64,000 nucleotides of DNA from Actinomycetes bacterium (GTDB lineage: Bacteria; Actinomycetota; Acidimicrobiia; Acidimicrobiales; RAAP-2), in NCBI GenBank assembly GCA_021790675.1, contig JAJYGN010000063.1, positions 3,458 through 67,457 of the forward strand, read 5' to 3'. Numbering within the stretch: position 1 is the first letter of the stretch; the number at the start of each line of letters is the position of its first letter. The translations under genes and the position numbers were made by a program. Below, piece after piece: positions 27,221 through 64,000 of the stretch. The notes below the pieces were generated by a model. That model did no database searches, was not told where the DNA came from, and saw nothing but the letters and a program-made list of their open reading frames with translations.

Positions 27221-29149
27221 GTGGCGACGTCGCGTGCCGCAGAGGAGAGTCGCGAACGGCTAGTGGCGCTGGTGCTGCTCTTGCAGAGCGCGACCCGTCA
27301 GAACCCGCTCACCCAAGAGGCGATCGTTCGCGAGCTGATGGTCGACGACGCGTCGGACAAGGTCATACGCAAGGTGCCCGCGTACCAGGGCAGCGACAGT
27401 GCCATTCGCCAGAAGTTCGAGCGCGACAAGGCCAAGATCCGCGAACTCGGATTCCAAATCGACACCGTCGACATGGACGGTGGCGGTGTGGGGTACTGGA
27501 TCGATCCCGACAGCGCGACGGCTCCGCGCATCGACTTCACCGAGGCCGAAGGACGCGTCGTCAGCCTGGCGCTGCGTTTTTGCGGGTTTGGCGCCGCGGG
27601 CGCCTTCAGCCTGTTCAACGAGGGCCCGGCGAGCGAGGGAGGTCTCGAATTCACGAACTACTACACGCCGGTGCTGCGGGCGCTCAACCTGCGCCGCGTG
27701 CTGCGCTTCGACTACCGCAGCGCGAGCGAGAAGTCCCGCGTCGTCGAACCCCTGGCAATCGGCGTCTTCGAGGGCGCCGCCTACCTGGTGGGTCGTGTCC
27801 ACGGCACCGAGGAGATCAAGGGCTATCGAATTACCCGGATGACCAGTATGCCGGTTGTTCTCGAGACCACTTTCGAGGTTGACGACGAAGCGCGTGACCT
27901 CGCCCGGGCCTGGCGGCCCGAGTACGCGAAGGTCCTCGAACCGATCGACGTGGTCGTGAACACCAGCGAGAACTACGCGGAACTCTTGCAGCGCCAGTTT
28001 GCCAACGCGTTTCGTCAACCTTCTGACGACGGCACCGTTGATGTGAGCATCGCGTTCGAGAGCCCGCGCGACGCGATGCGCTTCCTGCTCGACGCCGCCG
28101 ACCGAGTCCGCCTGCGCTCGCCCAAGTCGCTGCGTCGCGAGCTGGCCGATTGGTTGCGCAGGGTCAACCGCGGCGAGGTGCCCGACCTCAGCGGCGTCTC
28201 GTTCGCCCCGAGCGCCACCAATGACTCCCTCGGCCAGACGCTCCAACTGCTGCATGCGGTCTATCTGGCCGACGGAGGTCTGCGCATCAGCGACCTGGCG
28301 CACCGCTTCTCGCTCGCGCCCTCGATGGTTCGTCGCGTCATGGACCGCCTGGTCACCTTCGAGCCCATGGCCGGCGCGTACGGATTCCCCGCGCACGTGG
28401 TCAAGGAGTGCGATGACTGGGACGACGAGGCCAACGACGACTCGCTCTACCTGGTGGAGTCCTTCGGGCGCGACGGAAGCCACGAGCCCGCACCGCTGTT
28501 TTGGAGGGATCTCTTCGAGCTCAACATCGCCCTGCGCGAGGCGGCTCGTGTCTATGAGGATCCGGCGATTGATTCGGCGATCCGCAAAATCGAGGCGGCC
28601 ATCGACGGTTTCGTTCAGGTCGAGACGGCGACGGAGTCCCTGCTCGACGACCTGCGCGCCGCGATCGAGAATCACGAGCAGATCAAGATCGACTACACCC
28701 CCAGCGAGGCCGAGCGCGCCGAGACCCGGGTCATCGAGCCGCGGGACCTGCGGATCCTCAACGGCCACGCCTACGTGCGCGCCTACTGCTCGACGCGTGA
28801 GGGCTGGCGTACGTTTCGCGTGGATCGAATCGGGGCGATCCTCGCGAAGTCACCCGCGGACTCTTCGCATCCCGATGACACCGTCGCCAACTGGCTGACC
28901 CAGGTCGGTGAGGTCGGCGACGAGGTCGTTGTCGTCATTGAGCCGGGACTGCGCTGGCTGTTCGAGCCGCTGCCCAACGCGCAGTGGCGGGCACTCGACG
29001 ACGGCCGCGTGGCGGTTGCCTTCCGCACGAACGACCAGGCGTTCCTCGATCACCTCCTGCTGCGCGCCGGACCCGGCGCCGTGGTGGCCACGCCGGCCTA
29101 CGCCAAGGCGGGGCGCGCTCTGGCCGCGCGGATCGCCGAGCGACTCTAG
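27221..29149 (+). CDS. Fused PafB-PafC-like transcriptional regulator, 2x(HTH-WYL-WCX)
   Basis: PafB-type HTH (RERLVALVLLL...RQKFERDKAKIRELG), WYL1 (FDY..RVVEP..AYLVG..GYRITRM), second HTH (LRISDLAHRFSL), WYL2 (IDY..RVIEP..AYVRAYC..RTFRVDRI); start GTG 27221 after GGAGG. Confidence 0.88.
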   Translation: MATSRAAEESRERLVALVLLLQSATRQNPLTQEAIVRELMVDDASDKVIRKVPAYQGSDSAIRQKFERDKAKIRELGFQIDTVDMDGGGVGYWIDPDSATAPRIDFTEAEGRVVSLALRFCGFGAAGAFSLFNEGPASEGGLEFTNYYTPVLRALNLRRVLRFDYRSASEKSRVVEPLAIGVFEGAAYLVGRVHGTEEIKGYRITRMTSMPVVLETTFEVDDEARDLARAWRPEYAKVLEPIDVVVNTSENYAELLQRQFANAFRQPSDDGTVDVSIAFESPRDAMRFLLDAADRVRLRSPKSLRRELADWLRRVNRGEVPDLSGVSFAPSATNDSLGQTLQLLHAVYLADGGLRISDLAHRFSLAPSMVRRVMDRLVTFEPMAGAYGFPAHVVKECDDWDDEANDDSLYLVESFGRDGSHEPAPLFWRDLFELNIALREAARVYEDPAIDSAIRKIEAAIDGFVQVETATESLLDDLRAAIENHEQIKIDYTPSEAERAETRVIEPRDLRILNGHAYVRAYCSTREGWRTFRVDRIGAILAKSPADSSHPDDTVANWLTQVGEVGDEVVVVIEPGLRWLFEPLPNAQWRALDDGRVAVAFRTNDQAFLDHLLLRAGPGAVVATPAYAKAGRALAARIAERL

Positions 29150-29175
29150 CGACCGTTGTGGCCCAAGGGGGCCAC

Positions 29176-30240
29176 GTGCTGCGCATCTTCTCGCGTCGAT
29201 CGCTCGACGTTCGATACTTCACCGACGACCCCGCGCGCGAGCTCGAGGGGCTGCGCCCGCAGGGTCCGGGCTGGTGGTTGCGCGGGGCGGGCGACACCAC
29301 CGATCCCGAGTGCGTGCGCGGCGTCCTCGCGTCGAGCGAGAGGGCGAGCGTGGTGGGCTACGACATCGTCCTCGCGGCGCCGCGGCCGGTGTCGGTCCTG
29401 CTCGCCATCGACGAGCCCTCCGGTGCGGCTCTGGTCGCCGCGCACCGTCACGCCGTGGCAGAAGCACTGGGATATCTGGAGGAGCGTGGACTGACCGTGC
29501 GTTCCCAGCTGGCCGGGGAGCGTTACGACCTCGCCGCACGCTGGGAAAGTGTGGTGGCCTTCACGCACGGGGTCAACCGCCACGGTGAGCCTCACCTCCA
29601 CGACCACGTTCTGGTCGGCGCCCGGCCCACCGGCGAGGACGCGGTGCTCGATCGCCGTGGCCTCTCGGTGCACGCCGGGGCAGCGGACGCCCTCTATCTC
29701 GCCACGCTGCGCCACGAGGTGAACGCCCGGACCTCGTGGCGGGCGTGGCGCTCCTTTCAGGGCGTCGAGCACGTCGTGGGAGTCGACGAGGGCTATCGGG
29801 TGCTGTGGGGAGGACATCACGAGGGTCGTGGCGAGAAGATCCACTGGTCCCGCGAGGAAGCGCGCGCGGCCTGGCGCGACGACCTGACGCGCTATCAGCT
29901 CGAGGTGGCACCGTCCGCGCCGGCTCGCACCTTTGACGCGCACGCCTTCGCCGCGTCCTTCGAGGGGGCGCTCAGCGTAACGCGTCGTCACCTCGTGCAA
30001 GCCTGGGCCCACGCGTCAACCTTTGGTGAACGCGCCACCCGTATCGACGCCGGACTCGACACACTCGCGCCCGAGCTGTTCCATGAGCGCGGCGTGCGCG
30101 AGGCATCGATAACGGTGACTCGCGCTCGCAGCTTGGCGCCCTCAATCTCACGCCAGCACGTACTCGATCGAGCGCGCGAGACGGCGCGTCACCGCGAGCG
30201 AGAGCGCGACTCGCGCGCCGGCTCGGAGCGTTCGAGGTAG
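29176..30240 (+). CDS. Minimal MOB_F/TrwC-type HUH relaxase-domain protein (no helicase)
   Basis: 354 aa; motif I Tyr (DVRYFTDD), motif II YDIVLAAPRPVSVL, AAHRHAV, motif III FTHGVNRHGEPHLHDHVLV; AAGGGGG upstream. Confidence 0.85.
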   Translation: MLRIFSRRSLDVRYFTDDPARELEGLRPQGPGWWLRGAGDTTDPECVRGVLASSERASVVGYDIVLAAPRPVSVLLAIDEPSGAALVAAHRHAVAEALGYLEERGLTVRSQLAGERYDLAARWESVVAFTHGVNRHGEPHLHDHVLVGARPTGEDAVLDRRGLSVHAGAADALYLATLRHEVNARTSWRAWRSFQGVEHVVGVDEGYRVLWGGHHEGRGEKIHWSREEARAAWRDDLTRYQLEVAPSAPARTFDAHAFAASFEGALSVTRRHLVQAWAHASTFGERATRIDAGLDTLAPELFHERGVREASITVTRARSLAPSISRQHVLDRARETARHRERERDSRAGSERSR

Positions 30241-31490
30241 CGCGAGAAGCGCGCGTCACGATGAGCCGGGGTCAGTTCGATCCAACTCATGGTCTTGTCT
30301 GGCGCGAGCCCGAGGGCGTGGCCGGGCCGCCCACGAGCCAGGTTCGCCACGCTGGCCCGGTCGCGCTCGACCCAGCTGGTGGTAGTGCCGCCAGGGCGAC
30401 CCCAGGTGCGCCTCTGGTGCGACACGCTGGGCGTCAGGTGACGTCCGGCCAGGTGGTGGAGGAGTTCGAGGGTCGCACGATCCGCCACTCCCGGCAGGAC
30501 GACGGTGGTGGCGAAGAGGGAGACAAACCCGTCTGCGGCACCGCCCCAGCGCGCGCGAGCCTGGCTGAGGTCCTGGAGGCAGGCCATTGTCACCACCCCC
30601 TGGCCGCCTCCTTCGGAGACGACACCGGCGAGTCGCGGCAGCGGAGCTACATTGGCGACCTCATCGAGAGCCAGCAGCAGCCGCGCACCCCCTCCGTGAC
30701 GGTCGTAGGTGGAGTGGATGACGTGCTCGACGAGTCCGACCACGAGCGGAACGCTGAGCGCTTGGTGGCGGCTGGGCGCCACCACGTGAAGTTGGTGCGG
30801 TCCACGCAGGAACTCGTCGACGTCGAGCGGCGCCGAGCGCGCCGCCTCACGCGCGGCGTCAGTACGCACTCCGGCGAGCAGACCCGAGGTTGTCGACCAG
30901 ATTCCTGATCGTTCACGTTCTTCCGTGGCGAGCACTCCGCTGAGCAGTGAGACCGACGGATGACTGTCTCCGTAGCGCTCGCGCAGCATGTCATGCGCGT
31001 CGAGCGCACGTCGTTGATCGATGCGCGATGCAAGTTGTCCCAATGACTCGCCGTTCAGTGAGGCGGCGTGCAGTAGGGGAGCGAGTAGTGCGCTCGCTCG
31101 CTCGGTCCAGTGGTCGTCACCGCGTTCACCGCGACCGCGCTGCGCAACGTCGATGAGGCTGCGTGTCGCCAACATCGCGCCGTCCCAGTTACGTGCCTGA
31201 TGAATAGGTGAATATCCGACACGATGCACGCCGGGTGGCGTGCGAATCGTGCCGGACGGATCGAACAGCAGCGTGGCGCCATCACCGCGCGCGCCCGCCA
31301 TAATGTCGACGACGTCGTCTTTGGTCGACGTGACCAGAGCACTGCGTGTCGTCGAGAGCAGGTTCGGTATTACGAGTGACGACGTCTTGCCGCTTCGACT
31401 CGGACCAAGTACGAGCGTCGAACGTTCACTCCCACTGAAGACGTCGCCGTTGCGACCTCGTCCGAGATAGATGCCACGATCTTCGATCAC
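30189..31490 (-). CDS. VirD4/TraG-TraD-like type IV coupling ATPase lacking N-terminal TM segments
   Basis: Walker A GPSRSGKT, TSTKDD, Walker B LLALDEVANVAPLP, SEGGGQGV, LQDLSQARARWG; start GTG 31490 or TTG 31508. Confidence 0.87.
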   Translation of the reverse strand: MIEDRGIYLGRGRNGDVFSGSERSTLVLGPSRSGKTSSLVIPNLLSTTRSALVTSTKDDVVDIMAGARGDGATLLFDPSGTIRTPPGVHRVGYSPIHQARNWDGAMLATRSLIDVAQRGRGERGDDHWTERASALLAPLLHAASLNGESLGQLASRIDQRRALDAHDMLRERYGDSHPSVSLLSGVLATEERERSGIWSTTSGLLAGVRTDAAREAARSAPLDVDEFLRGPHQLHVVAPSRHQALSVPLVVGLVEHVIHSTYDRHGGGARLLLALDEVANVAPLPRLAGVVSEGGGQGVVTMACLQDLSQARARWGGAADGFVSLFATTVVLPGVADRATLELLHHLAGRHLTPSVSHQRRTWGRPGGTTTSWVERDRASVANLARGRPGHALGLAPDKTMSWIELTPAHRDARFSRYLERSEPARESRSRSR

Positions 31491-31784
31491 GAAAAACAAA
31501 CGTCGCAAAAAGTGTCGAAATGCTTGACATTGGTGTGTAGACCGAGTGAACTTTTAGATGTCCTTCTGCGGAGGAGGTTCACGTTCGCCGGATGTGTTGC
31601 TAGCAGTCCATTCGGAGAGCGCTTCACCGCGAGGGACCGTGCACTGCGGTCGGTCGTCGTACAGCGAGGACGCTGGGCGATACACGAGCGAGTTCACGTT
31701 TGTCAGTGGGGTGTCAAGAGGCGAATCACCACGGTGGTGATCGCGATTCCACGCTGATTCAACGTTGAGTCCCAAGGAGGGAAA

Positions 31785-32075
31785 GTGGCAACTGCCGCGA
31801 AGAAGAAGGCTCCGGCCAAGAAGGCTCCGGCCAAGAAGGCCGCCGCCAAGAAGGTAGCCAGGAAGGCTCCGGCCAAGAAGGCTCCGGCCAAGAAGGCCGC
31901 CGCCAAGAAGGCTCCGGCCAAGAAGGCTGCCGCCAAGAAGGTAGCTAAGAAGGCTCCGGCCAAGAAGGCCGCCGCCAAGAAGGCTCCGGCCCGCAAGGCC
32001 GCCGCCAAGAAGGCTCCGGCCCGCAAGGCTGCAGCCAAGAAGGCTCCGGCCCGCAAGGCTGCAGCCAAGAAGTAA
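31785..32075 (+). CDS. Histone H1-like (PAKK/AAKK repeat) basic protein
   Basis: 96 aa almost entirely K/A/P/R; strong AAGGAGG RBS; followed by hairpin. Confidence 0.88.
31799..32072 (+). repeat. Coding tandem 15-bp repeats (AAGAAGGCTCCGGCC / AAGAAGGCCGCCGCC variants)
   Basis: Directly visible; encode [10 protein letters not shown] pentapeptides. Confidence 0.9.
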
Positions 32076-32094
32076 CTCGTCTCCTAGGAGAATC

Positions 32095-32128
32095 GCAACT
32101 GAGGGGGTCTTCGGGCCCCCTCAGTTGC
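32095..32128. terminator. Hairpin, probable bidirectional terminator
   Basis: GCAACTGAGGGGGTC-TTCG-GGCCCCCTCAGTTGC, 15-bp stem with UUCG loop between convergent genes. Confidence 0.8.
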
Positions 32129-55731: not shown

Positions 55732-56835
55732 GTGACGACGGCAGTTCTCTTCGGCGGGCCGAGCCCGGAACACGACATCTCCATCCTGACTGGACTGCAG
55801 GCGCTGCGCGAGCTCGAGCGCTCCCGCGAGGTCGTGGGCATCTACTGGACCAAGACCGGCGCCTTCTACAGCGTCGCCGCGGGCGTCGAGGCCGAATCGT
55901 TCATCGACGGATTGCCGCGCGGATCGAGCGAACTGGCCCTTCGCGTCGGTGACGGCGGCGGCTTTGTCGCTACGGCCGGTCGCCTCGGGCGCGAGCGGCG
56001 CCTCGATTTTGACGCGGTCGTCATGGCGACCCACGGCGGCCCCGGCGAAGACGGCTCGCTCCAGGCCGCCCTCGACCTGGCCGGCGTCGCCTACAGCGGG
56101 CCCAGCGTCGCTGGCGCCGCGCTCGGCATGGACAAGTGGGCCTTCGGCGCGGTGGTCGCCGCGGCCGGCCTGGCCACGCTGCCGCGCGCCCTGCTCAGCC
56201 CCGAGACCGCGACGCTGGATTTCGCCGGGCCCTACATCTTGAAGCCGCGCTTTGGCGGATCCTCGATCGGCATCGACGTCGTAGCCGACCTGGCCACGGC
56301 TCAGGCGCGCCTCGCGACGAACACGCACCTCGCGCGCGGCTGCGTGGTCGAGCCCTTTCGCAGCGACCTGGTCGACGTGCAGATCGCCGTGCGGACGTTT
56401 CCCGCGATTGACCTCTCGGCGATCGAGAGGCCCATTCGACGCAGCGAGAACGCTGAGATCCTCAACTACCGCGACAAGTACGTCGGCGGCGAGGGGATGG
56501 TGTCGGCGCCGCGCGAGCTGCCCGCGCGCTTGGCGCCGGGCCAACGCGAGCAGATTGAACACGCCGCCCGAGTCCTCGTCGAGGCGGCGTCGGTGCGCGG
56601 CGTGGCGCGCATCGACTTTCTGGCCAGCGACGACGAGCTCTACGTCAACGAGATCAACACGATCCCCGGCTCGTTGGCCAAGCACCTCTTTGTCGACCCG
56701 CCCCTCGCCTTCTCGCGGCTACTCGAGGATTTGGTCACCGAGGCGTCCACCCGGCCCGCGCGCCACTTCAGCGCGGCCGGCGCCGACGGGACCGTGCTGC
56801 GCAGTGCCGGCTCCATCGCCGCCAAACTCGCGTAG
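55732..56835 (+). CDS. ddl: D-alanine-D-alanine ligase
   Basis: FGGPSPEHDIS, HGGPGEDG, MDK, KP.FGGSSIG, YRDKY, ARIDF, NEINTIPG. Confidence 0.92.
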   Translation: MTTAVLFGGPSPEHDISILTGLQALRELERSREVVGIYWTKTGAFYSVAAGVEAESFIDGLPRGSSELALRVGDGGGFVATAGRLGRERRLDFDAVVMATHGGPGEDGSLQAALDLAGVAYSGPSVAGAALGMDKWAFGAVVAAAGLATLPRALLSPETATLDFAGPYILKPRFGGSSIGIDVVADLATAQARLATNTHLARGCVVEPFRSDLVDVQIAVRTFPAIDLSAIERPIRRSENAEILNYRDKYVGGEGMVSAPRELPARLAPGQREQIEHAARVLVEAASVRGVARIDFLASDDELYVNEINTIPGSLAKHLFVDPPLAFSRLLEDLVTEASTRPARHFSAAGADGTVLRSAGSIAAKLA

Positions 56836-58383
56836 GCGCGGCACCGCGGCCAGGGCCGTCGCCAGGGTGTCGCTGTAGGGGTCGAGCAGGCGGCCGCGCT
56901 CGATTGCCCAGAACGCCAGATCGACGTCGCCGGCTACGAGCGCCCAGCGCGATAGGGCCAGGGCGGCCCACTCGCCCTCGCGCACGAGCCGCGCCCAGTG
57001 GCCCTCGGCGAGGAACCACTCGAAGCCGCGCAGTGCGCTAGCGAGCGGCTCGCCCTGGACGAGCGAGAGCGCCTCGACAAGCGTGGCGTGCCCGCCACTC
57101 GCACGACCCTCGGCGACCAGGCGGTGGAACTCCTCGACGTCGCTGTCGACGTCGTGGGTGAGATAGAGCCCCGCGGAGCTGACGGGGTGCAGTCGCGGGC
57201 CCCGCTCGTCGACGCCCAGGCTGCGACGAACCGCACTCGCCGTGTTGGCGAGCGTGCGCACGGAGGCGTCTGCGTCGGCGTGGGCCAGGACGCGTGTACG
57301 TAGCCGGTCGCCGGTGACCGGTTCGTGCCGGTGCAGCGCGAGGTAGGCCACCATCTCGACGCAGCGCCGGCGCAGAGTGGCCGTGAAGGGCTCGGCGAGG
57401 CCGACCACTACCGGTTCGGCGCGCAGCAGTTCGACGCGCACCGTGCGGCCCGCGGCAGCGCTCGGTGCCGATCCCAGAACGAGAGTCTCGCTGGCGCGCG
57501 CGGCGCGCACGCGCGCCACTACCACGGCGTGCTCGGCGAGTGCCGCATCGACCGGCGGGCCGTCGTAGAGGACGAGGGTCGAGCCCAATGTGCGCGTCGC
57601 CAGGTGGCGCAGCAGCTCGTCCTCGGTACGGGCCAGTCGCAGGGTGCCACCGCGGTGCGCGGCCACGCAGCCGTCGGCGATCTCCTCGGCGGTGCTCGTC
57701 GCCGGCACCCTCAGGCGTCCCCCTTCGCGGGCGAAGGACACGACGGTTCCGTCCTCGTCCTCGTCGAGGACGAGGACGCACAGCGCGGCCTCTTCTTCCA
57801 CGGCGAGGAAGGAGTAGTCGCCAGAGAGGCGCACCACGCCGTCACGGCGGCCGCGCAGGAGATGGTTCACGCCGGCGAGGAGTCGGGGGTTGCCGCGGCG
57901 TAGCAGCGCAATGGTGCCATCGACGTCGTCGTCGTTCTCGCCGACCTCTCGCAGGGCGTCGCGCCGTCGACGAGCGGCGATCGCGAGGGCCACTGGACTG
58001 ATCGCTCCGACGGGGGCGTGGCCGTGGCCGTGAGAGCCCGCTGCGACGAGTGAGCTCATAGACGCGGAGCCCGACGCCCGCGAGGGGGCGTGGGCGAGGC
58101 CCGGTGCCAAGAGGAACGCCGCGATCGTCACGACGAGGCCGGCCAGCCAGGCACTGCCACCCGCCCCGGCGCTCTCGCCACGGCGAAGCCGGGCGACCTG
58201 ACGAAGGACCTGAACGAGGAAGGCGAGCCAGAACAGCGAGAGGCCCACCAGCAGCGCTCGCACCACGGACCCGTCGGACAGGCCGGCCGCCACGCGCCAC
58301 TTGTCGACGACCACAATGGGTACCAGCACGAAGTACAGCGCGAGGGCGACGCCGTGGAGCGGACCAGTGGCGAAGCGCTTCAC
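56719..58383 (-). CDS. Membrane protein with C-terminal winged-HTH + BTAD (SARP-like) domains
   Basis: Likely start GTG 58383 coupled to upstream TGA; three hydrophobic N-terminal segments; EMVAYLALH, SAVRRSLG, SDVEEF, ALSLVQGEP, GRLLDPYSD; overlaps the ddl 3' end by 117 bp. Confidence 0.75.
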   Translation of the reverse strand: MKRFATGPLHGVALALYFVLVPIVVVDKWRVAAGLSDGSVVRALLVGLSLFWLAFLVQVLRQVARLRRGESAGAGGSAWLAGLVVTIAAFLLAPGLAHAPSRASGSASMSSLVAAGSHGHGHAPVGAISPVALAIAARRRRDALREVGENDDDVDGTIALLRRGNPRLLAGVNHLLRGRRDGVVRLSGDYSFLAVEEEAALCVLVLDEDEDGTVVSFAREGGRLRVPATSTAEEIADGCVAAHRGGTLRLARTEDELLRHLATRTLGSTLVLYDGPPVDAALAEHAVVVARVRAARASETLVLGSAPSAAAGRTVRVELLRAEPVVVGLAEPFTATLRRRCVEMVAYLALHRHEPVTGDRLRTRVLAHADADASVRTLANTASAVRRSLGVDERGPRLHPVSSAGLYLTHDVDSDVEEFHRLVAEGRASGGHATLVEALSLVQGEPLASALRGFEWFLAEGHWARLVREGEWAALALSRWALVAGDVDLAFWAIERGRLLDPYSDTLATALAAVPRLREFGGDGAGTAQHGPVGAGRAEVARGPGGRLGDQILE

Positions 58384-58949
58384 GAGCGCGGCGCGAGGCG
58401 CCAGGACGTGGCGCTCGTGGTGCTCGCGGTGATCAGCAGTTGGCAGGTCTGGGATCTGTCGATCACGACGAGGTCGGCGAAGGACGTGTTCGCGCGGGGG
58501 CAGACCAGTCGCGTCGCCACTGGGGCGCTCGCCCAGATCTCCCAGGTTCCGGGGCCGTTCAGGGGAACGTCCACGACCTGTCCGCCGGCGAGCACCCCGG
58601 CTACGACGCCGTTCGAGACGCTGGCGCCGACGCCGGACCCGCTTGAGCTCTCGTTCGAAGCGGTCGCGGCGGAGAAGTTCGTCGCGTGCGTCGCCGGTCG
58701 CGACGGCTTCGTCGACGCCGGGGGAGTCCTCGGAGCTCGCCGCAGCGTCGAGGTGGTGCTCGCCGGCGCGAGTGAGGTCGTCGTCGGGATCGACGCTGGA
58801 CTCGTCGTTGGAGCCACGTCGACGCTGACGTGGGGGGAACGCTGGGCCCGCGCCGACGTGGTCATCGAGAAGAGCATCACGAGTAACAAAACGGGGCTCG
58901 ACCACATCACGAGCTGCGCGCCCCAGCGAGATGAACTCGTTTGCGTCAT
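58380..58949 (-). CDS. Secreted Ser/Thr-rich hypothetical protein
   Basis: Signal-peptide-like N-terminus ending ARA, S/T/P linker, small C-terminal beta-type domain with 2 Cys; start uncertain. Confidence 0.65.
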   Translation of the reverse strand: MTQTSSSRWGAQLVMWSSPVLLLVMLFSMTTSARAQRSPHVSVDVAPTTSPASIPTTTSLAPASTTSTLRRAPRTPPASTKPSRPATHATNFSAATASNESSSGSGVGASVSNGVVAGVLAGGQVVDVPLNGPGTWEIWASAPVATRLVCPRANTSFADLVVIDRSQTCQLLITASTTSATSWRLAPRS

Positions 58950-59006
58950 CGGCGTTCCACGGTATCGGGAGACGGTCGGGCTGGTCTGTGGACGAAAGAC
59001 CCAAGC

Positions 59007-59702
59007 TCACACGAGACACCGACGGGCGAATCGTTGGAGCTCGCCGCGCAGTGACGTCGGCGAACTGTGGTCGGCCTGGGCCAGGTCGCGCAGGGATCGC
59101 CCCTCGAAGACTCGGGCGTAGGTCAATCGCGCCAGACGGTCCTCGGGTCCGCCGCGGTAGCTAGCGAGGCGCGCCTCGAGGGTCGAAGACATCTCCGCGG
59201 CCACGTCCATCACGTCAAAGGCCGAGACCTGGGCGACTGCTCCCTTCTCCTTGAGGAGCCAGCGGCGAAGGCGACCACGAAGCGCCGATAGCAAGTCCGG
59301 CGCTGCGTAGGCGCGGTGCTGACCCGCCCAGTCCACGAGGAGCTCGCTCAGAAACCCGAGGGCCACCGCGAAGGTCTCGCCGGGATCGACGATGATGCCC
59401 TGGCCGAAGCGCAGTTGACGGCACACGCTCACCACACCAGGCACCAGCGTCTGAAGGAGAGCGCGGTGCACGCGGGGGTCGGACGCCTCCTCGAGCAGGG
59501 CGGTGACGATCTCGGCTCGTTCGAGGACCGTCCGCCCACCACGGATCTCGAGGGCGCTCACGACGTCGTAGAGGTCGTCGAGACCCTCGAGTTTGAGGTC
59601 GGGGTGACGGTCCCGCAATCGTGCGAGCGCGGATACCGCGTCGGGGGAGCGGCCGGAGCGTTGCCACTCCCGCCGTAGTTGGGCAATGAGGTCAGTGGTC
59701 AT
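59007..59702 (-). CDS. Hypothetical protein with sigma-70 region-4-like C-terminal HTH
   Basis: ATG 59702; ALLQTLVPG helix; C-terminal ARVFEGRSLRDLAQADHSSPTSLRGELQR resembles region 4. Confidence 0.6.
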   Translation of the reverse strand: MTTDLIAQLRREWQRSGRSPDAVSALARLRDRHPDLKLEGLDDLYDVVSALEIRGGRTVLERAEIVTALLEEASDPRVHRALLQTLVPGVVSVCRQLRFGQGIIVDPGETFAVALGFLSELLVDWAGQHRAYAAPDLLSALRGRLRRWLLKEKGAVAQVSAFDVMDVAAEMSSTLEARLASYRGGPEDRLARLTYARVFEGRSLRDLAQADHSSPTSLRGELQRFARRCLV

Positions 59703-59836
59703 GACCCCCAGTCCACGAGGGGTCGCGCACCGAAGGGCTCCTCTGCGCGCACCGTGCCGACGTCCATTTCCCACGCCGACGAGAATGACTTGGCGAACGC
59801 ACCGCGCCGCGCACATAGCGGATCTAGGCTGCGGCC

Positions 59837-60178
59837 ATGGACATCGAAACCTTCTACGAGCAGAACGAGGCGCGACGCGAGAGCGCGGAGTTCGAGTTCG
59901 GAAGCGAGTGGACCGACGCGTCGGGCAACGAGTACGAACTGTCCTGGGTCGAAGCGACCGGTGAGCTCTACCTGATGGTCGAGCCCGACGCGCTGATCAA
60001 TGAGGACATCTTCGGAGATTTCCTCGTGTCGGACGAGGAGATCAGCGAGCTCACCGTGGTGGTGATCGCCAAGGTCGCGTCACTGGCCGCGATCGAGGAC
60101 CAGCTCGAAGGGTGGGAGGACGCAATGCTCGAGGAGAACTCCCTCGAGTGGCTCCACGAACGCTTCGCCTCCGCCTAG
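59837..60178 (+). CDS. Acidic hypothetical protein
   Basis: 113 aa, D/E-rich, host-like codon usage, TAGGCT 6 nt before ATG. Confidence 0.75.
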   Translation: MDIETFYEQNEARRESAEFEFGSEWTDASGNEYELSWVEATGELYLMVEPDALINEDIFGDFLVSDEEISELTVVVIAKVASLAAIEDQLEGWEDAMLEENSLEWLHERFASA

Positions 60179-61838
60179 GAGACTGTTGAACAACGCCGAT
60201 TCTGGGCGTATGTTTCATGGTGCAAGTCCGGGACATGTCTGAACCAAAGCGCCGACGTGAAGAGGGTTGAAGTCGGCCACCCTGGTGGGCAGCGCCCGTG
60301 AAGTGGTCCCTTTCTTGACGGCCTGGACTTGCGCCGTCCCCTCACGTGGTGAGAAGCGTCCAGGTGCCGTCAAAGGCGAGCCCGAGATTGACCAGACGTC
60401 GCAGGTTGATGGCGGCGACCCGGGTCGAGAGGCCCATCTGGTTCTTTTCGACGCCGCGGTATCTGACGCGCCGTGAAGAGCCCCTCACGAGCCACGCGAG
60501 CGATCGTTCGACCATCGGACGATATTTTTGATAGTCCGAAATGAACTCTCTGTCGCACCAGGCCCGACGAGACTCGACGAGCTCTGCGTCATGAGCAGTG
60601 AGCGTGAGATGACGGCCGTTGCGAGCGTTCGTGCAGCGTGATCGCAGTGGGCAACTCGTGCAGCGCACCCCGAACGTCGCGTAGCGACGCGGGGTGATGG
60701 CGACGACGTGTCCAGCCGGACAGGTGGCCGTTCCCGCGTCCTCGTCGACGACGAAGTCGTCACGGTGGAATCCACCCGGCACCGCCGTGTTGGAAGGGAA
60801 GGGCTTGATCGCTCGGTGGTGGCCGGCCTCTTTCAGAGCCGCGAGGGTCTCGCCCGAGCCGTAGGCAGAGTCGGCGAGGATCTGGAGCCCGGGCCCTTCG
60901 CCCTCGAGCAGCGCCACCCCGGTCGGACCGTCGGGCGTGTTCGCCGGGGTGAGAGCCGCGCCGGTAATGAGTCCGGTCTCGGGCTCGACGGCCAGGTGGG
61001 CCTTGTAGCCGTCGCGGTAGTCGCTGCGACTCTTGTGCATGTGGCGGGCCTCGGGGTCGACCACGGAGATGACGCGGTCCTTCGCGACCCCGCGCACGAT
61101 GCGCCAGAGACCCTCGTCGTCGAGCTCGACGTCCTGGCCCGCGACGAGGCCCAGCAGTCCGAGCGCCGCGCCAGCCTCGGGGCCCTCGACCTCGGCGCAC
61201 GCGTCGAGGAGACGAAGCGCGTCAACGACCAACGCGTTCACGAGCTCGCCTCGCGCCACCTCGTCGTCCCAGCCAATTGCTGGCTTGCCCGCGGCGTCGT
61301 AGTCGAGGGCGAGGAGGGTGACGTTGCTCGCCGCGGGCACGATGCGGCGCACGCGCCGGATCGCCGCGACCAGTTGGGTGACGGTGTCCTGGGTCGCGAC
61401 GGCGTCATCGAGCAGTGTCGAGTCGAGCGCCCGGCGGGTCTTGCCCGTAAGAACCCCGGTGGCCTCGACCACCGCGCGCACCGCCTCGAAGATCGCTCGG
61501 GACGCTCGGAGTTGCGCAGGCGCGTTCGCCAGTAGGTGAGGACCGAATAGTCAAAGCCCGCCTCGTCGAGGGCCAGTCCGCAGGCCACCTTCCAGCTGAT
61601 CCGGTCGGTCAACGCCCGCGCGGCGTCGCGGTCCGAGAGACCTTCGAGGGCCTGGAGGACCATGACCGAGGCCACCGTGTCGGCAGGAATCGAAGGTCGG
61701 TCCCGCTTGGAAATGAACAGGTCTTCGAACATGGCGTCGGGGAACAGCTCGTGACGGTGGTCGGCCAAGAACGCCTCGACGCTCCCTTGGGGCACGAGTT
61801 GTCGGCAGAGTGCCGCCGCATCGAGCAGTTCACGGTTG
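60179..61838 (-). mobile_element. IS1182-family element, partial (5' end missing)
   Basis: Probable terminus GAGACTGTTGAACAA directly after CTAG (60175-60178); transposase follows; left end replaced by IS256. Confidence 0.8.
60342..61838 (-). pseudogene. IS1182-family transposase, frameshifted and 5'-truncated
   Basis: N-part (RPSIP, LQALEGLSDR, WKVACG) and C-part (LDST, DRVISVVDPEARH, GYKAH, ADSAYG, R..VER) are in different frames; one base missing near 61495 (PER/IFEAVR). Confidence 0.85.
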
Positions 61839-63230
61839 GATCACGTCCCGCCGAGTGGTGTAACTCCGATGGAGCACTTCTCGATGCGTGACCATCTTGT
61901 CATTTGACCTTGGTGAGGGCAACCTTCGCCGGAGGTAGTGCGTCACTCTTCAACTGATCCATGGACTCGTGGGAAAGGTAACGACGCTCTGAGACGCTCC
62001 ATTCGTCGTGCTGTTCGACACAGACCGCGGTGATGAGACGCAACGCCGCGGCGTCGTTGGGGAAGATCCCGACCACGTTGGTGCGTCGCTTGATCTCGGC
62101 GTTGAGGCGTTCGAGCGAGTTGGTCGACCAGATCTTCTGCCAGTGGTTCGTCGGGAAGTGGCGAAAGGCCGTGATGTCTTCGGCGGCGTCCTCGAGCATC
62201 TCGGTGACCAGTGGGAACTTGCGCTTCATGGTGGCCGCCACTTCTTTCACCTGTCGTTCGACGTGCTCGGCGTCGGGCTGGGCGAAGATCGTCCTCACCA
62301 TGGCGGCAACCATCGATTGCTGGGTCCGTGGCACCTTCACGAGCACGTTGCGCATGAAGTGCACCCGACAGCGCTGCCAGGAGGCCCCGGGAAAGACCTT
62401 CGCGATCGCTGCCTTGAGGCCCAGATGCGAATCGCTGATCACGAGCTGGACGCCATGCAGTCCGCGTTCGCGCAGGCTCTGCAGGAACTCGGTCCAAAAG
62501 GCCGCGTCCTCCGAGTCGCCAATGGACACGCCCAGCACCTCGCGACTGGCGTCCTCGGCCACACCGGTGGCGACCACGACGGCCCGGCTGACGACCCGTC
62601 CGCCCACGCGGGCCTTGACGTAGGTGGCGTCACAGAGCAGGTAGGGAAAGGCCAGGTGAGAGAGACTGCGAGTGCGAAAGGCGTTCATTTCCTCGTCGAG
62701 CTGCGCGCAAATTCGCGAGACCTCGGACTTGGAGATCCCCGCGCCCACGCCGAGTGCCATCACGAGGTCGTCGACCTTGCGCGTCGAGACCCCGTGCACG
62801 TAGGCCTCCATCACCACGGCGTAGAGGGCCTGGTCGATGCGTCGGCGCCGCTCGAGCACGCTCGGAAAGAACGAGCCCTTGCGCAGCTTGGGAATCTTCA
62901 GCTCCACGTCGCCGGCCTTGGTCGAGACCAGCCGCGGTCGCGATCCGTTGCGTTGGGTGGTGCGAGCCAGAGAACGCTCGTGGCGTTCGGCCTGGACGAC
63001 CTCGGTCGCCTCGGCGTCGATCAACGCCTGATAGAGGAAGCTGACCATCTGGCGAACGAGGTCGCCGCTCTCGTCGCTTTGAAGTGCGCCGAGCACCTCG
63101 GACAGGTCAAAATCATGGTGGGTCATCGGAGTATTCCTTTCGTGCCTTGCTATGGACACATCAAGAAATACTCCGGTGGCCCGTCTTCACGAAGGACCGG
63201 GTAAATTACACCACTTCAGGGGACGTCAAC
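61839..63230 (-). mobile_element. IS256-family element
   Basis: Imperfect terminal inverted repeats GATCACGTCCCGCCGAGTGGTGTAA / TTACACCACTTCAGGGGACGTCAAC flanking the transposase. Confidence 0.9.
61900..63159 (-). CDS. IS256-family (Mutator-like) transposase
   Basis: RNG, IPKLR, GVSTRKV, DATYVK, ISDSH, WQRCRVHF, STNSLERLN; true start may be MTHHDF at 63126. Confidence 0.95.
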   Translation of the reverse strand: MSIARHERNTPMTHHDFDLSEVLGALQSDESGDLVRQMVSFLYQALIDAEATEVVQAERHERSLARTTQRNGSRPRLVSTKAGDVELKIPKLRKGSFFPSVLERRRRIDQALYAVVMEAYVHGVSTRKVDDLVMALGVGAGISKSEVSRICAQLDEEMNAFRTRSLSHLAFPYLLCDATYVKARVGGRVVSRAVVVATGVAEDASREVLGVSIGDSEDAAFWTEFLQSLRERGLHGVQLVISDSHLGLKAAIAKVFPGASWQRCRVHFMRNVLVKVPRTQQSMVAAMVRTIFAQPDAEHVERQVKEVAATMKRKFPLVTEMLEDAAEDITAFRHFPTNHWQKIWSTNSLERLNAEIKRRTNVVGIFPNDAAALRLITAVCVEQHDEWSVSERRYLSHESMDQLKSDALPPAKVALTKVK

Positions 63231-63626
63231 ATGACCGATCCCGCGATCAGTAGTGCCACACCTGAGGCTTGCAGGCGAAGTCCGCCAGAAGCAAGATGAC
63301 GTATCCGGGATCGCGAAAGCTCATCGAGGCGCAGATGTTCAGCTACGGAAGCGGCATCGTGCGTGGTCATTGCTTGAAGACGTAGAGAACAGTTCATCAC
63401 CGATCGACTCGGAGCCGTTGTACGACCCATCGGCTCCTCGCCCGGGGCTGACCGGCGCGTAGCGCGCGGTCGGCCCATCGGGCCAAGTGTGTGATCCCCA
63501 GAATCCCCGACGTGAGTCCTGTCGAGAGGAATCTGCCGAGCTCTCACGAAACATTGTGTTCGAAAGAGGCCAGAAAACGTCCTATTCCTATGGGGGATGA
63601 ATGTCTCATCCCTCGTAAGGAGAGAC

Positions 63627-63938
63627 ATGAGACTGCCCATCGACACGACCACCGTGAAGTTTGCGGCCGCTGGACCCGCTGAACCCGTCCTCGACTACGA
63701 GACCAGGGCACCGAAGTTGGACGAGAACGGCGTCGCACTGTTCAACGTGCCGCTCTTCGCGGCTGGCACGGGAATCAAGGACTCGATCACCGTGAAGGTG
63801 GCGGGAGAGCCCAAGGGTCTCGCCGAGTTCACCCTCGTGAAGGTGACGAACCTGGTCGCGAGCACCTGGGAGGTTGGCACGAACCACGGGGTCAGTTTTC
63901 GTGCTGACCGCGTCGAGGCCGTGAAGGTCGGCGCGTAG
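63627..63938 (+). CDS. SCO3933/Pra-like protein of actinomycete integrative elements (AICE)
   Basis: AAGGAG RBS; MRLPIDT...P..D....K.D..G..L......I.VKVAGEP.......V....L.A..W.....GVSFRA..V pattern. Confidence 0.72.
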   Translation: MRLPIDTTTVKFAAAGPAEPVLDYETRAPKLDENGVALFNVPLFAAGTGIKDSITVKVAGEPKGLAEFTLVKVTNLVASTWEVGTNHGVSFRADRVEAVKVGA

Positions 63939-64000
63939 TGGGCCGGCTCCTCGTCTTCCTCGTCGTTGCCACTCTGGTTCAGTTCGTCCTCGCGTGGGCG
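63938..64000 (+). CDS. Start of a membrane protein, possibly FtsK/SpoIIIE-type Tra (truncated by window)
   Basis: TAGTG coupling; MGRLLVFLVVATLVQFVLAWA is hydrophobic; identity inferred only from AICE gene order. Confidence 0.35.
   Translation, partial: MGRLLVFLVVATLVQFVLAWA

Follow-up and report, generated by a model that had tools for sequence, protein, structure and literature searches.

The window analysed here is a stretch of 64,000 nucleotides from an actinomycete genome of the order Acidimicrobiales (assembly GCA_021790675.1, contig JAJYGN010000063.1, positions 3,458 to 67,457), and the subject of this work is a pair of genes within it that encode a conjugative relaxase and a VirD4-family coupling ATPase. 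Both genes converge, with an overlap of 52 bp, and the relaxase begins 26 bp after the stop codon of a fused PafB-PafC regulator. A sequence-only reading of the window had proposed that these three genes and a neighboring histone H1-like gene constitute a domesticated module. Its four open reading frames (ORFs) are all present where it placed them, and the flanking genes moaC, cofC, and rnhB are borne out by profile search (Table 1). The relaxase scores 79.6 bits against the TrwC profile PF08751, for a cut-off of 25, and 74.6 against NCBIfam MobF, which is under the cut-off of 100 of that model, and the ATPase matches the VirD4 families PF02534 and PF12696 in a profile search. The AlphaFold model of the relaxase (predicted local distance difference test, pLDDT, of 93) matches TrwC and TraI, and that of the ATPase (pLDDT 80) matches Cag-beta and TrwB. 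For the latter, judging from the starts of its relatives and the spacing to an upstream motif, a GTG start at 31490 is more likely than the TTG given in Table 1.

Table 1. Features of the window locus and of the channel locus of the same genome. Positions are those of the window, except for the last row.
Feature	Position	Strand	Remarks
Fused PafB-PafC (double WYL) regulator, 642 aa	27221..29149	+	Two WYL and WCX domains by profile
Shared promoter-like motif CGACCGTTG, 5' of relaxase	29150..29158	+	Exact in 32/36 genus loci
Helicase-less MOB-F (TrwC-type) relaxase, 354 aa, Arg-rich C-terminal tail	29176..30240	+	Profile, invariant residues, fold
VirD4-family coupling ATPase without membrane anchor, 439 aa from TTG	30189..31508	-	Walker A/B present; last residue Arg
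Degenerate copy of the shared motif (7/9), 5' of ATPase	31497..31505	-	At least 7/9 in 32/34 genus loci
TTGACA promoter-like site and conserved structured leader of H1-like gene	31524..31784	+	Rfam: no match
PAKK-repeat histone H1-like gene, 96 aa	31785..32075	+	Neighbor, probably independent
Terminator-like hairpin between H1-like gene and cofC	32096..32127	.	Read from sequence
Five-gene minimal type IV secretion system operon: pilin-like, VirB6-like, SCO6880-family, VirB4-like, VirD4	L066 5946-10680, contig C87		

The relaxase and the ATPase are vertically inherited chromosomal core genes under purifying selection, and not parts of an ordinary island. Within the genus, the relaxase is found in all 36 genomes, being in pieces in one of them, and the order of WYL gene, relaxase, and convergent ATPase is kept in 36/36, with the H1-like gene and cofC following wherever the contig extends. 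At the family level, 110 of 120 genomes hold the relaxase and 109 of 120 the ATPase (66/67 and 65/67, respectively, for the high-quality genomes), and the same order is present in the 20 other genera of the family that were sampled (20/20), with frameshifts in two. For the whole order, the ATPase is detected in 60/221 genomes, belonging to 21 of the 76 families, with a threshold of our own choosing (E < 1e-80) that sets aside three weaker matches. Moreover, in a class sample of 151, all eight ATPase matches fall within Acidimicrobiales. A TrwC match is present in each of 14 further ATPase-positive genomes, as fragments only in one and broken in another. Extra copies of the ATPase occur in 3/121 family genomes, and single-copy retention with intact catalytic residues is observed in 35 of 36 genera.

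Residues Y14, H131, R135, H142, and H144 are invariant in the 55 relaxases compared (55/55), and by TrwC numbering we take them to be the catalytic residues. In the ATPase alignment, Walker A is present in 58/61 rows and Walker B in 59/61, the misses including frameshifted pieces and a protein from an integrative and conjugative element (ICE). The ratio of nonsynonymous to synonymous substitution rates (dN/dS) for close pairs is 0.10-0.30 for the relaxase and 0.07-0.14 for the ATPase, and against the nearest relative the values are 0.14 and 0.067, rnhB being similar at 0.12. Also, the relaxase and ATPase trees show no supported conflict with the housekeeping trees of 18 genomes, with only 3 and 6 supported splits, respectively; all trees in this work are quick searches with Shimodaira-Hasegawa-like support only. 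The presence of both genes, their synteny, a dN/dS of 0.07-0.3, the congruent trees, and the invariant catalytic residues support host co-option rather than decay, as the sequence-only reading had proposed, and the catalytic Tyr and His residues of the relaxase and the Walker motifs of the ATPase are kept, as it had stated. That the pair is a relic of an ordinary integrated element, devoid of host function, is very improbable. A relic would fit the clear mobile-element ancestry, the stepwise decay of a helicase domain, and the occasional loss of channel genes described below, but the dN/dS is far below 1, the reading frames are intact, and the motifs are invariant at 25-55% identity. In addition, neither an integrase nor att-like direct repeats bracketing the module were found at the locus, in agreement with the earlier claim.

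A search of the genome itself revealed a second VirD4 gene on contig C87 (L, G, C, and f numbers are our own labels for loci, genomes, contigs, and families), being the last gene of an operon for a minimal type IV secretion system (T4SS). The statement that no VirB4 or T4SS is present holds for the window and fails for the genome. The operon is located between senX3-regX3 and a ROK kinase gene, a site that does not vary among the 38 genus loci examined, as far as the contigs extend. Its pilin-like protein has 94 aa and two helices, and its VirB4-like ATPase has 383 aa. By profile, VirB4 is above the cut-off of AAA_10 and the SCO6880-family protein is just under its own, and the VirB6-like and pilin-like proteins were assigned by hydropathy, position, and homology to proteins of L112 and L105. 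The members of a monoderm-type T4SS (VirB4, VirB3-like, VirB6-like, and coupling protein) are all found in this genome; at 87% completeness, it gave no match to the genes in the middle of the ICE operons, and no ComEC. Of the genus genomes, 55/60 have VirB4, as do 108/120 of the family, and in 20 other genera VirB4-VirD4 is found in all, with the complete five-gene run in 15. The dN/dS of the channel genes to the nearest relative is 0.03-0.15, and in their tree 2-3 of 10 splits are in supported conflict with housekeeping trees, one conflict being found between the housekeeping sets themselves. Three genus loci have no second VirD4, and in G027 and G033, where it has been lost, the window-type ATPase is the sole coupling-type gene found.

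The origin of both loci can be approached by comparison with mobile relatives. The C-terminal superfamily I helicase typical of these relatives is absent from the window relaxase, with no AAA_30 match in its 354 aa; at the chromosomal site in other families a helicase remnant goes from 37-59 bits down to none, and mobile copies score 167-189 bits. According to hydropathy, a membrane anchor is present in 0/37 genus ATPases, and the mobile relatives are the same, with one borderline case. Six elements (L249, L250, L252, L254, L256, and L258) have a relaxase-helicase gene and, in tandem with it, one for an anchorless ATPase of the same subfamily as in the window; a strong helicase domain is present in all five scanned, a tyrosine integrase in two, and a serine recombinase in one, and no channel genes are found in the DNA fetched around them. 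Because the anchorless ATPase occurs in integrase-bearing mobile elements, its form is not due to trimming in the host, so that the proposal of two trimmed proteins is right for the relaxase, which lost its helicase, and wrong for the ATPase. On the other hand, a relaxase-helicase accompanies the operon of the channel locus in ICE-like elements of the order, with exactly these five genes in L113, and the operon plus an NlpC/P60 gene and a 259-aa gene in L105. From these sequence comparisons, the pair likely derived from an integrative mobilizable element (IME) and the channel from an ICE, and the six channel-less elements would be candidate users of the host channel. The ATPases of small Rhodococcus and Mycobacterium plasmids, the closest plasmid ones, were rejected as a direct model, because their N-termini are longer and in part hydrophobic and because a MOB-P relaxase adjoins that of Mycobacterium. 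In L251 (G198), the ATPase orthologue and lsr2 are divergent; as lsr2 also encodes a nucleoid protein, this echoes the H1-like neighbor in the window.

Several lines of evidence connect the pair with the channel. VirB4 is present in 60/60 ATPase-positive genomes of the order and in 36/161 of the others. Moreover, the nine bases of CGACCGTTG precede the pilin gene exactly in 28/36 loci (at least 8/9 in all), in addition to the relaxase and, in degenerate form, the ATPase (Table 1), and an exact copy is found in 0/362 upstream regions of 11 other genes used as a control; as the motif was picked out visually from these very sets, scoring them with a profile is circular. In this genome, the motif is near the start of 13/1948 genes, and 33 of its 78 sites are intergenic in a genome that is 90% coding. 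It is also present in the recA promoter of this genome and 4/5 others, before dnaB in this genome and 3/5 others, and before an ICE relaxase. The motif lies about 7 bases from several start codons and could thus be the -10 element of an alternative sigma factor, and 10 sigma-70 family matches are found in this genome. The sites on contigs C56, C91, C41 (at 73132), C79, C47, C27, and C90 lie before mshA, rex, the dnaB just named, three genes that resemble integrases, and two pairs that resemble hicAB. The names of these motif-preceded genes, as well as of recA, were assigned from their sequences and are presumptive.

In other genera, a profile trained on the genus motifs mostly failed, and a forward-strand ATGAAA-repeat motif was found before the relaxase in 16/80 cases, the pilin in 11/23, and the ATPase in 7/58, and in 0/123 upstream regions of housekeeping genes; it matches poorly genome by genome and is a lead only. 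AT-rich CATGAAA repeats are common to the relaxase and pilin promoter regions in L121/L126, L143/L161, and L112, being candidates for a regulator site or an accessory site of an origin of transfer (oriT). In addition, in 5/5 genomes of family f15, a relaxase without a recognizable helicase motif is directly divergent from the pilin gene, and three of these loci share an LPG-synthase neighbor with the pafBC-relaxase loci of other families.

An alternative is that the pair and the channel serve, gate, or block mobilizable elements, either by lending the channel or as a decoy relaxase with a dominant-negative coupling protein, whereas the cell's own chromosome is not moved. In this case, the presence in the same genomes of elements with the same ATPase subfamily and without channel genes in the fetched DNA, the shared motif before integrases and an ICE relaxase, and a host oriT that was not found would be explained. 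However, single-copy genes with intact catalytic residues across 35/36 genera, the rarity of extra ATPase copies, and a slow, tree-congruent evolution unlike an arms race make this explanation unlikely.

We favor, with a probability of about 0.5, the reading that the two loci constitute a domesticated, split, relaxase-based conjugation machine, with the pair as the likely DNA-processing half and the operon as the likely channel half, that is predicted to move single-stranded chromosomal DNA to neighboring cells. Chromosomal mobilization in trans was the last of the possible roles named in the sequence-only reading, and the channel operon that matches the pair in this genome strengthens it. According to this mechanism, one regulator or alternative sigma factor would induce the relaxase, the ATPase, and the channel operon along with recA and dnaB; the relaxase would nick a chromosomal site and stay covalently attached through Tyr14, with a host helicase as a possible substitute for the lost domain. 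Then, the soluble ATPase would couple this complex to the channel made of VirB4, VirB6, and pilin, the Arg-rich tails being putative export or docking signals, and the recipient would recombine the transferred strand, for repair or gene exchange. To a broader version we give somewhat less than even odds, namely that a clade of at least 21 families made a relaxase-based conjugation system into split core genes, as a permanent, host-regulated chromosome-donor system in which the soluble coupling ATPase may itself be exported and channel-less elements hitch-hike.

Several observations weigh against chromosome transfer by the two loci. The genomes in which VirB4 and the ATPase co-occur are kin that form one clade and do not count as separate instances. 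The motif sites before integrases, hicAB, mshA, and rex indicate a regulon wider than the two loci, and beyond the genus the motif has a patchy distribution (23/80 relaxases, 3/23 pilins, and 4/58 ATPases). For the f15 relaxases, the approximately unbiased test does not decide between the chromosomal and the mobile group (p of 0.51 and 0.58), and separate trees disagree. No oriT was found, nor a conserved nic-like site near the locus, and the helicase domain that is gone here is required for transfer in MOB-F systems (PMC12857230). Also, the similar cmd cluster of Streptomyces did not affect plasmid transfer (PMC2782261). In G022 and G329, most of the channel operon is lost and the relaxase and ATPase are intact, although an assembly error is possible; both losses (L313 and L314, respectively) begin in the middle of the pilin gene, and the deletion junction of G022 continues in frame into the end of the second VirD4. 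Finally, both VirD4 genes are devoid of a membrane anchor in this genus, and the channel locus has neither the dedicated cell-wall hydrolase and the 215-259 aa gene of some ICE relatives nor a VirB8-like gene, five NlpC/P60 genes being present elsewhere in this genome.

The C-termini of the two proteins lead to a different possibility, in which the relaxase and the ATPase would be cargo or adaptors of the channel, or the channel would have a role in segregation and development like that of Streptomyces CmdA-F, and DNA would stay in the cell. The last residue of the ATPase is Arg in 43/44 sequences outside the genus, a count that omits frameshifted and mobile rows, and in 29/38 within it, with tails that resemble those of the relaxases, whereas the second VirD4 ends in Arg in 3/23 and 13/34, respectively. 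Positively charged C-termini are T4SS signals (PMC3297438), and the cmd genes are a precedent for a cell-biology role (PMC2782261). Nonetheless, the relaxase active site is invariant, a TrwC match accompanies the ATPase in all 14 further genomes, including the fragmented and the broken one, and the tails are constrained in this genus, where the coding sequences of the two C-termini lie across from each other on opposite strands. On balance, this explanation seems slightly less likely than the handling of mobile elements.

A literature search, in which most subscription papers were out of reach, found no description of either locus. Compared with TrwC-TrwB of R388 and TraI of F and pKM101, the pair shares the HUH fold, the catalytic Tyr and three His, the VirD4 fold, and Walker A/B; in contrast, here the genes are chromosomal core genes, convergent, with one motif-I Tyr (in this genus), without helicase, anchor, or any oriT found. 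The closest families are those of actinobacterial T4SS-type ICEs (Ghinet et al., PMC3218068) and of L105/L106, L113, L114, and L249-L258, with the same MOB-F relaxase, VirD4, short VirB4, and SCO6880, as well as VirB6-like (SCO6881-like in L112) and two-helix pilin-like proteins (DUF6112 in L112 and L105). Unlike these ICEs and IMEs, the present system has no integrase, att site, or cargo, is split over two fixed sites, and is inherited vertically. Archaeal Ced/Ted (PMC9905601) is also a domesticated minimal T4SS, with pilin, VirB6-like, and VirB4-like proteins, that moves cellular DNA. Ced, however, imports DNA without a relaxase, whereas the Acidimicrobiales system keeps the relaxase and the coupling protein, and therefore export is predicted for it. 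Streptomyces cmdABCDEF (PMC2782261), likened to the channel locus by description, is also a conserved chromosomal cluster of Actinomycetota, VirB4-like, membrane-associated, and of plasmid-transfer ancestry, but its phenotypes are in sporulation and segregation, and no relaxase is mentioned in the accessible text.

The chromosomal T4SS of Patescibacteria (PMC12102498) is likewise lineage-wide and monoderm-type; a relaxase is present in only 103 genomes of that data set, whereas here the relaxase itself is core. The gonococcal genetic island of Neisseria (PMC12857230) offers a likeness in its relaxase-initiated export of chromosomal single-stranded DNA (ssDNA), but it is F-like, has its own oriT, and is on an island, in contrast to the split core genes described here. 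The domesticated conjugation machines compared here (Ced/Ted and Patescibacteria) have no relaxase, or nearly always so, and in Acidimicrobiales many families keep as core genes those for nicking, for coupling, and for a minimal channel. If chromosomal DNA is transferred, this would be a host-controlled bacterial mating system with a very small T4SS of seven genes. A practical caution is that matches to a relaxase and a coupling protein do not mark mobile elements in these genomes.

Regarding the neighbors of the pair, the WYL gene product matches, over residues 57-548 (E 3.4e-15), a PafBC fusion that occurs naturally in Arthrobacter aurescens (6SJ9; PMC6789036) and has the same two WYL/WCX units, so that such fusions were already known from that work; unlike in A. 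aurescens, the fusion here is not adjacent to pafA. It is the only WYL gene of this genome, and pafB and pafC are separate genes in other genera. These observations, together with the promoter-like site and conserved leader that the H1-like gene has of its own, speak against the four-gene module proposed at first. Also, the PafBC-type promoter motif (tGTCgg-N10-tA-N3-T; PMC8635444) is found before 0/37 relaxases, 0/37 ATPases, and 0/36 pilins, and is present before recA in this genome and 3/5 others under a strict pattern. Control of the pair by PafBC is thus not supported, the 26-bp gap being occupied by the relaxase's own motif. No LexA box precedes the relaxase, ATPase, or pilin gene in this genome.

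Nonetheless, in loci of several families, pafBC is at most 331 bp upstream of the relaxase in 25/33, with 0.65-5.5 kb between them in 6 and no pafBC in 2, and this adjacency outlasts that of relaxase and ATPase; the link is absent in G159. PafBC is a long-standing neighbor, perhaps marking the insertion site, and probably not part of the machine. The persistence of this link, the shared motif in recA promoters, and the survival of the pair after channel loss in two genomes would be consistent with the stress module of the earlier reading, in which PafBC senses ssDNA made by the relaxase, or induces the pair for DNA damage inside the cell. We consider such a module improbable, more so than protein export, given that the three units have neither PafBC motif nor, in this genome, LexA box, that the link is broken or missing in the loci just described, and that the 26-bp gap contains a motif belonging to the relaxase itself.

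In the recA promoter (C65:13085-13213, and also L320-L324), a LexA-type box, a CGACCG(A/T)TG motif, and a PafBC-type promoter are stacked. The recA open frame has 710-731 aa in this genome and three others, which is possibly due to an intein. The pafA gene is, we assume, on another contig and not beside pafBC: C109:17697-24002 holds what we take to be a Pup-proteasome cluster with pafA, followed by signal-peptidase-like and tat-like genes, without pafBC.

The leader of the H1-like gene shows compensatory changes in 35/71 predicted pairs among 13 sequences and is mostly confined to this genus, an Rfam search giving no real match, and in several other families the H1-like gene is not beside the ATPase. 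An F-nic-like string at 31708 was considered as an oriT and rejected, as it is not conserved and the conserved region there folds as the H1-like leader RNA. Lastly, an integrase-like ORF is found beyond the window end, at C41:73132, and positions 56722-64000 of the window are island-like, with two transposase-like genes and a GC content down to 0.60; a small gene in this region resembles integrative-element proteins of actinomycetes.

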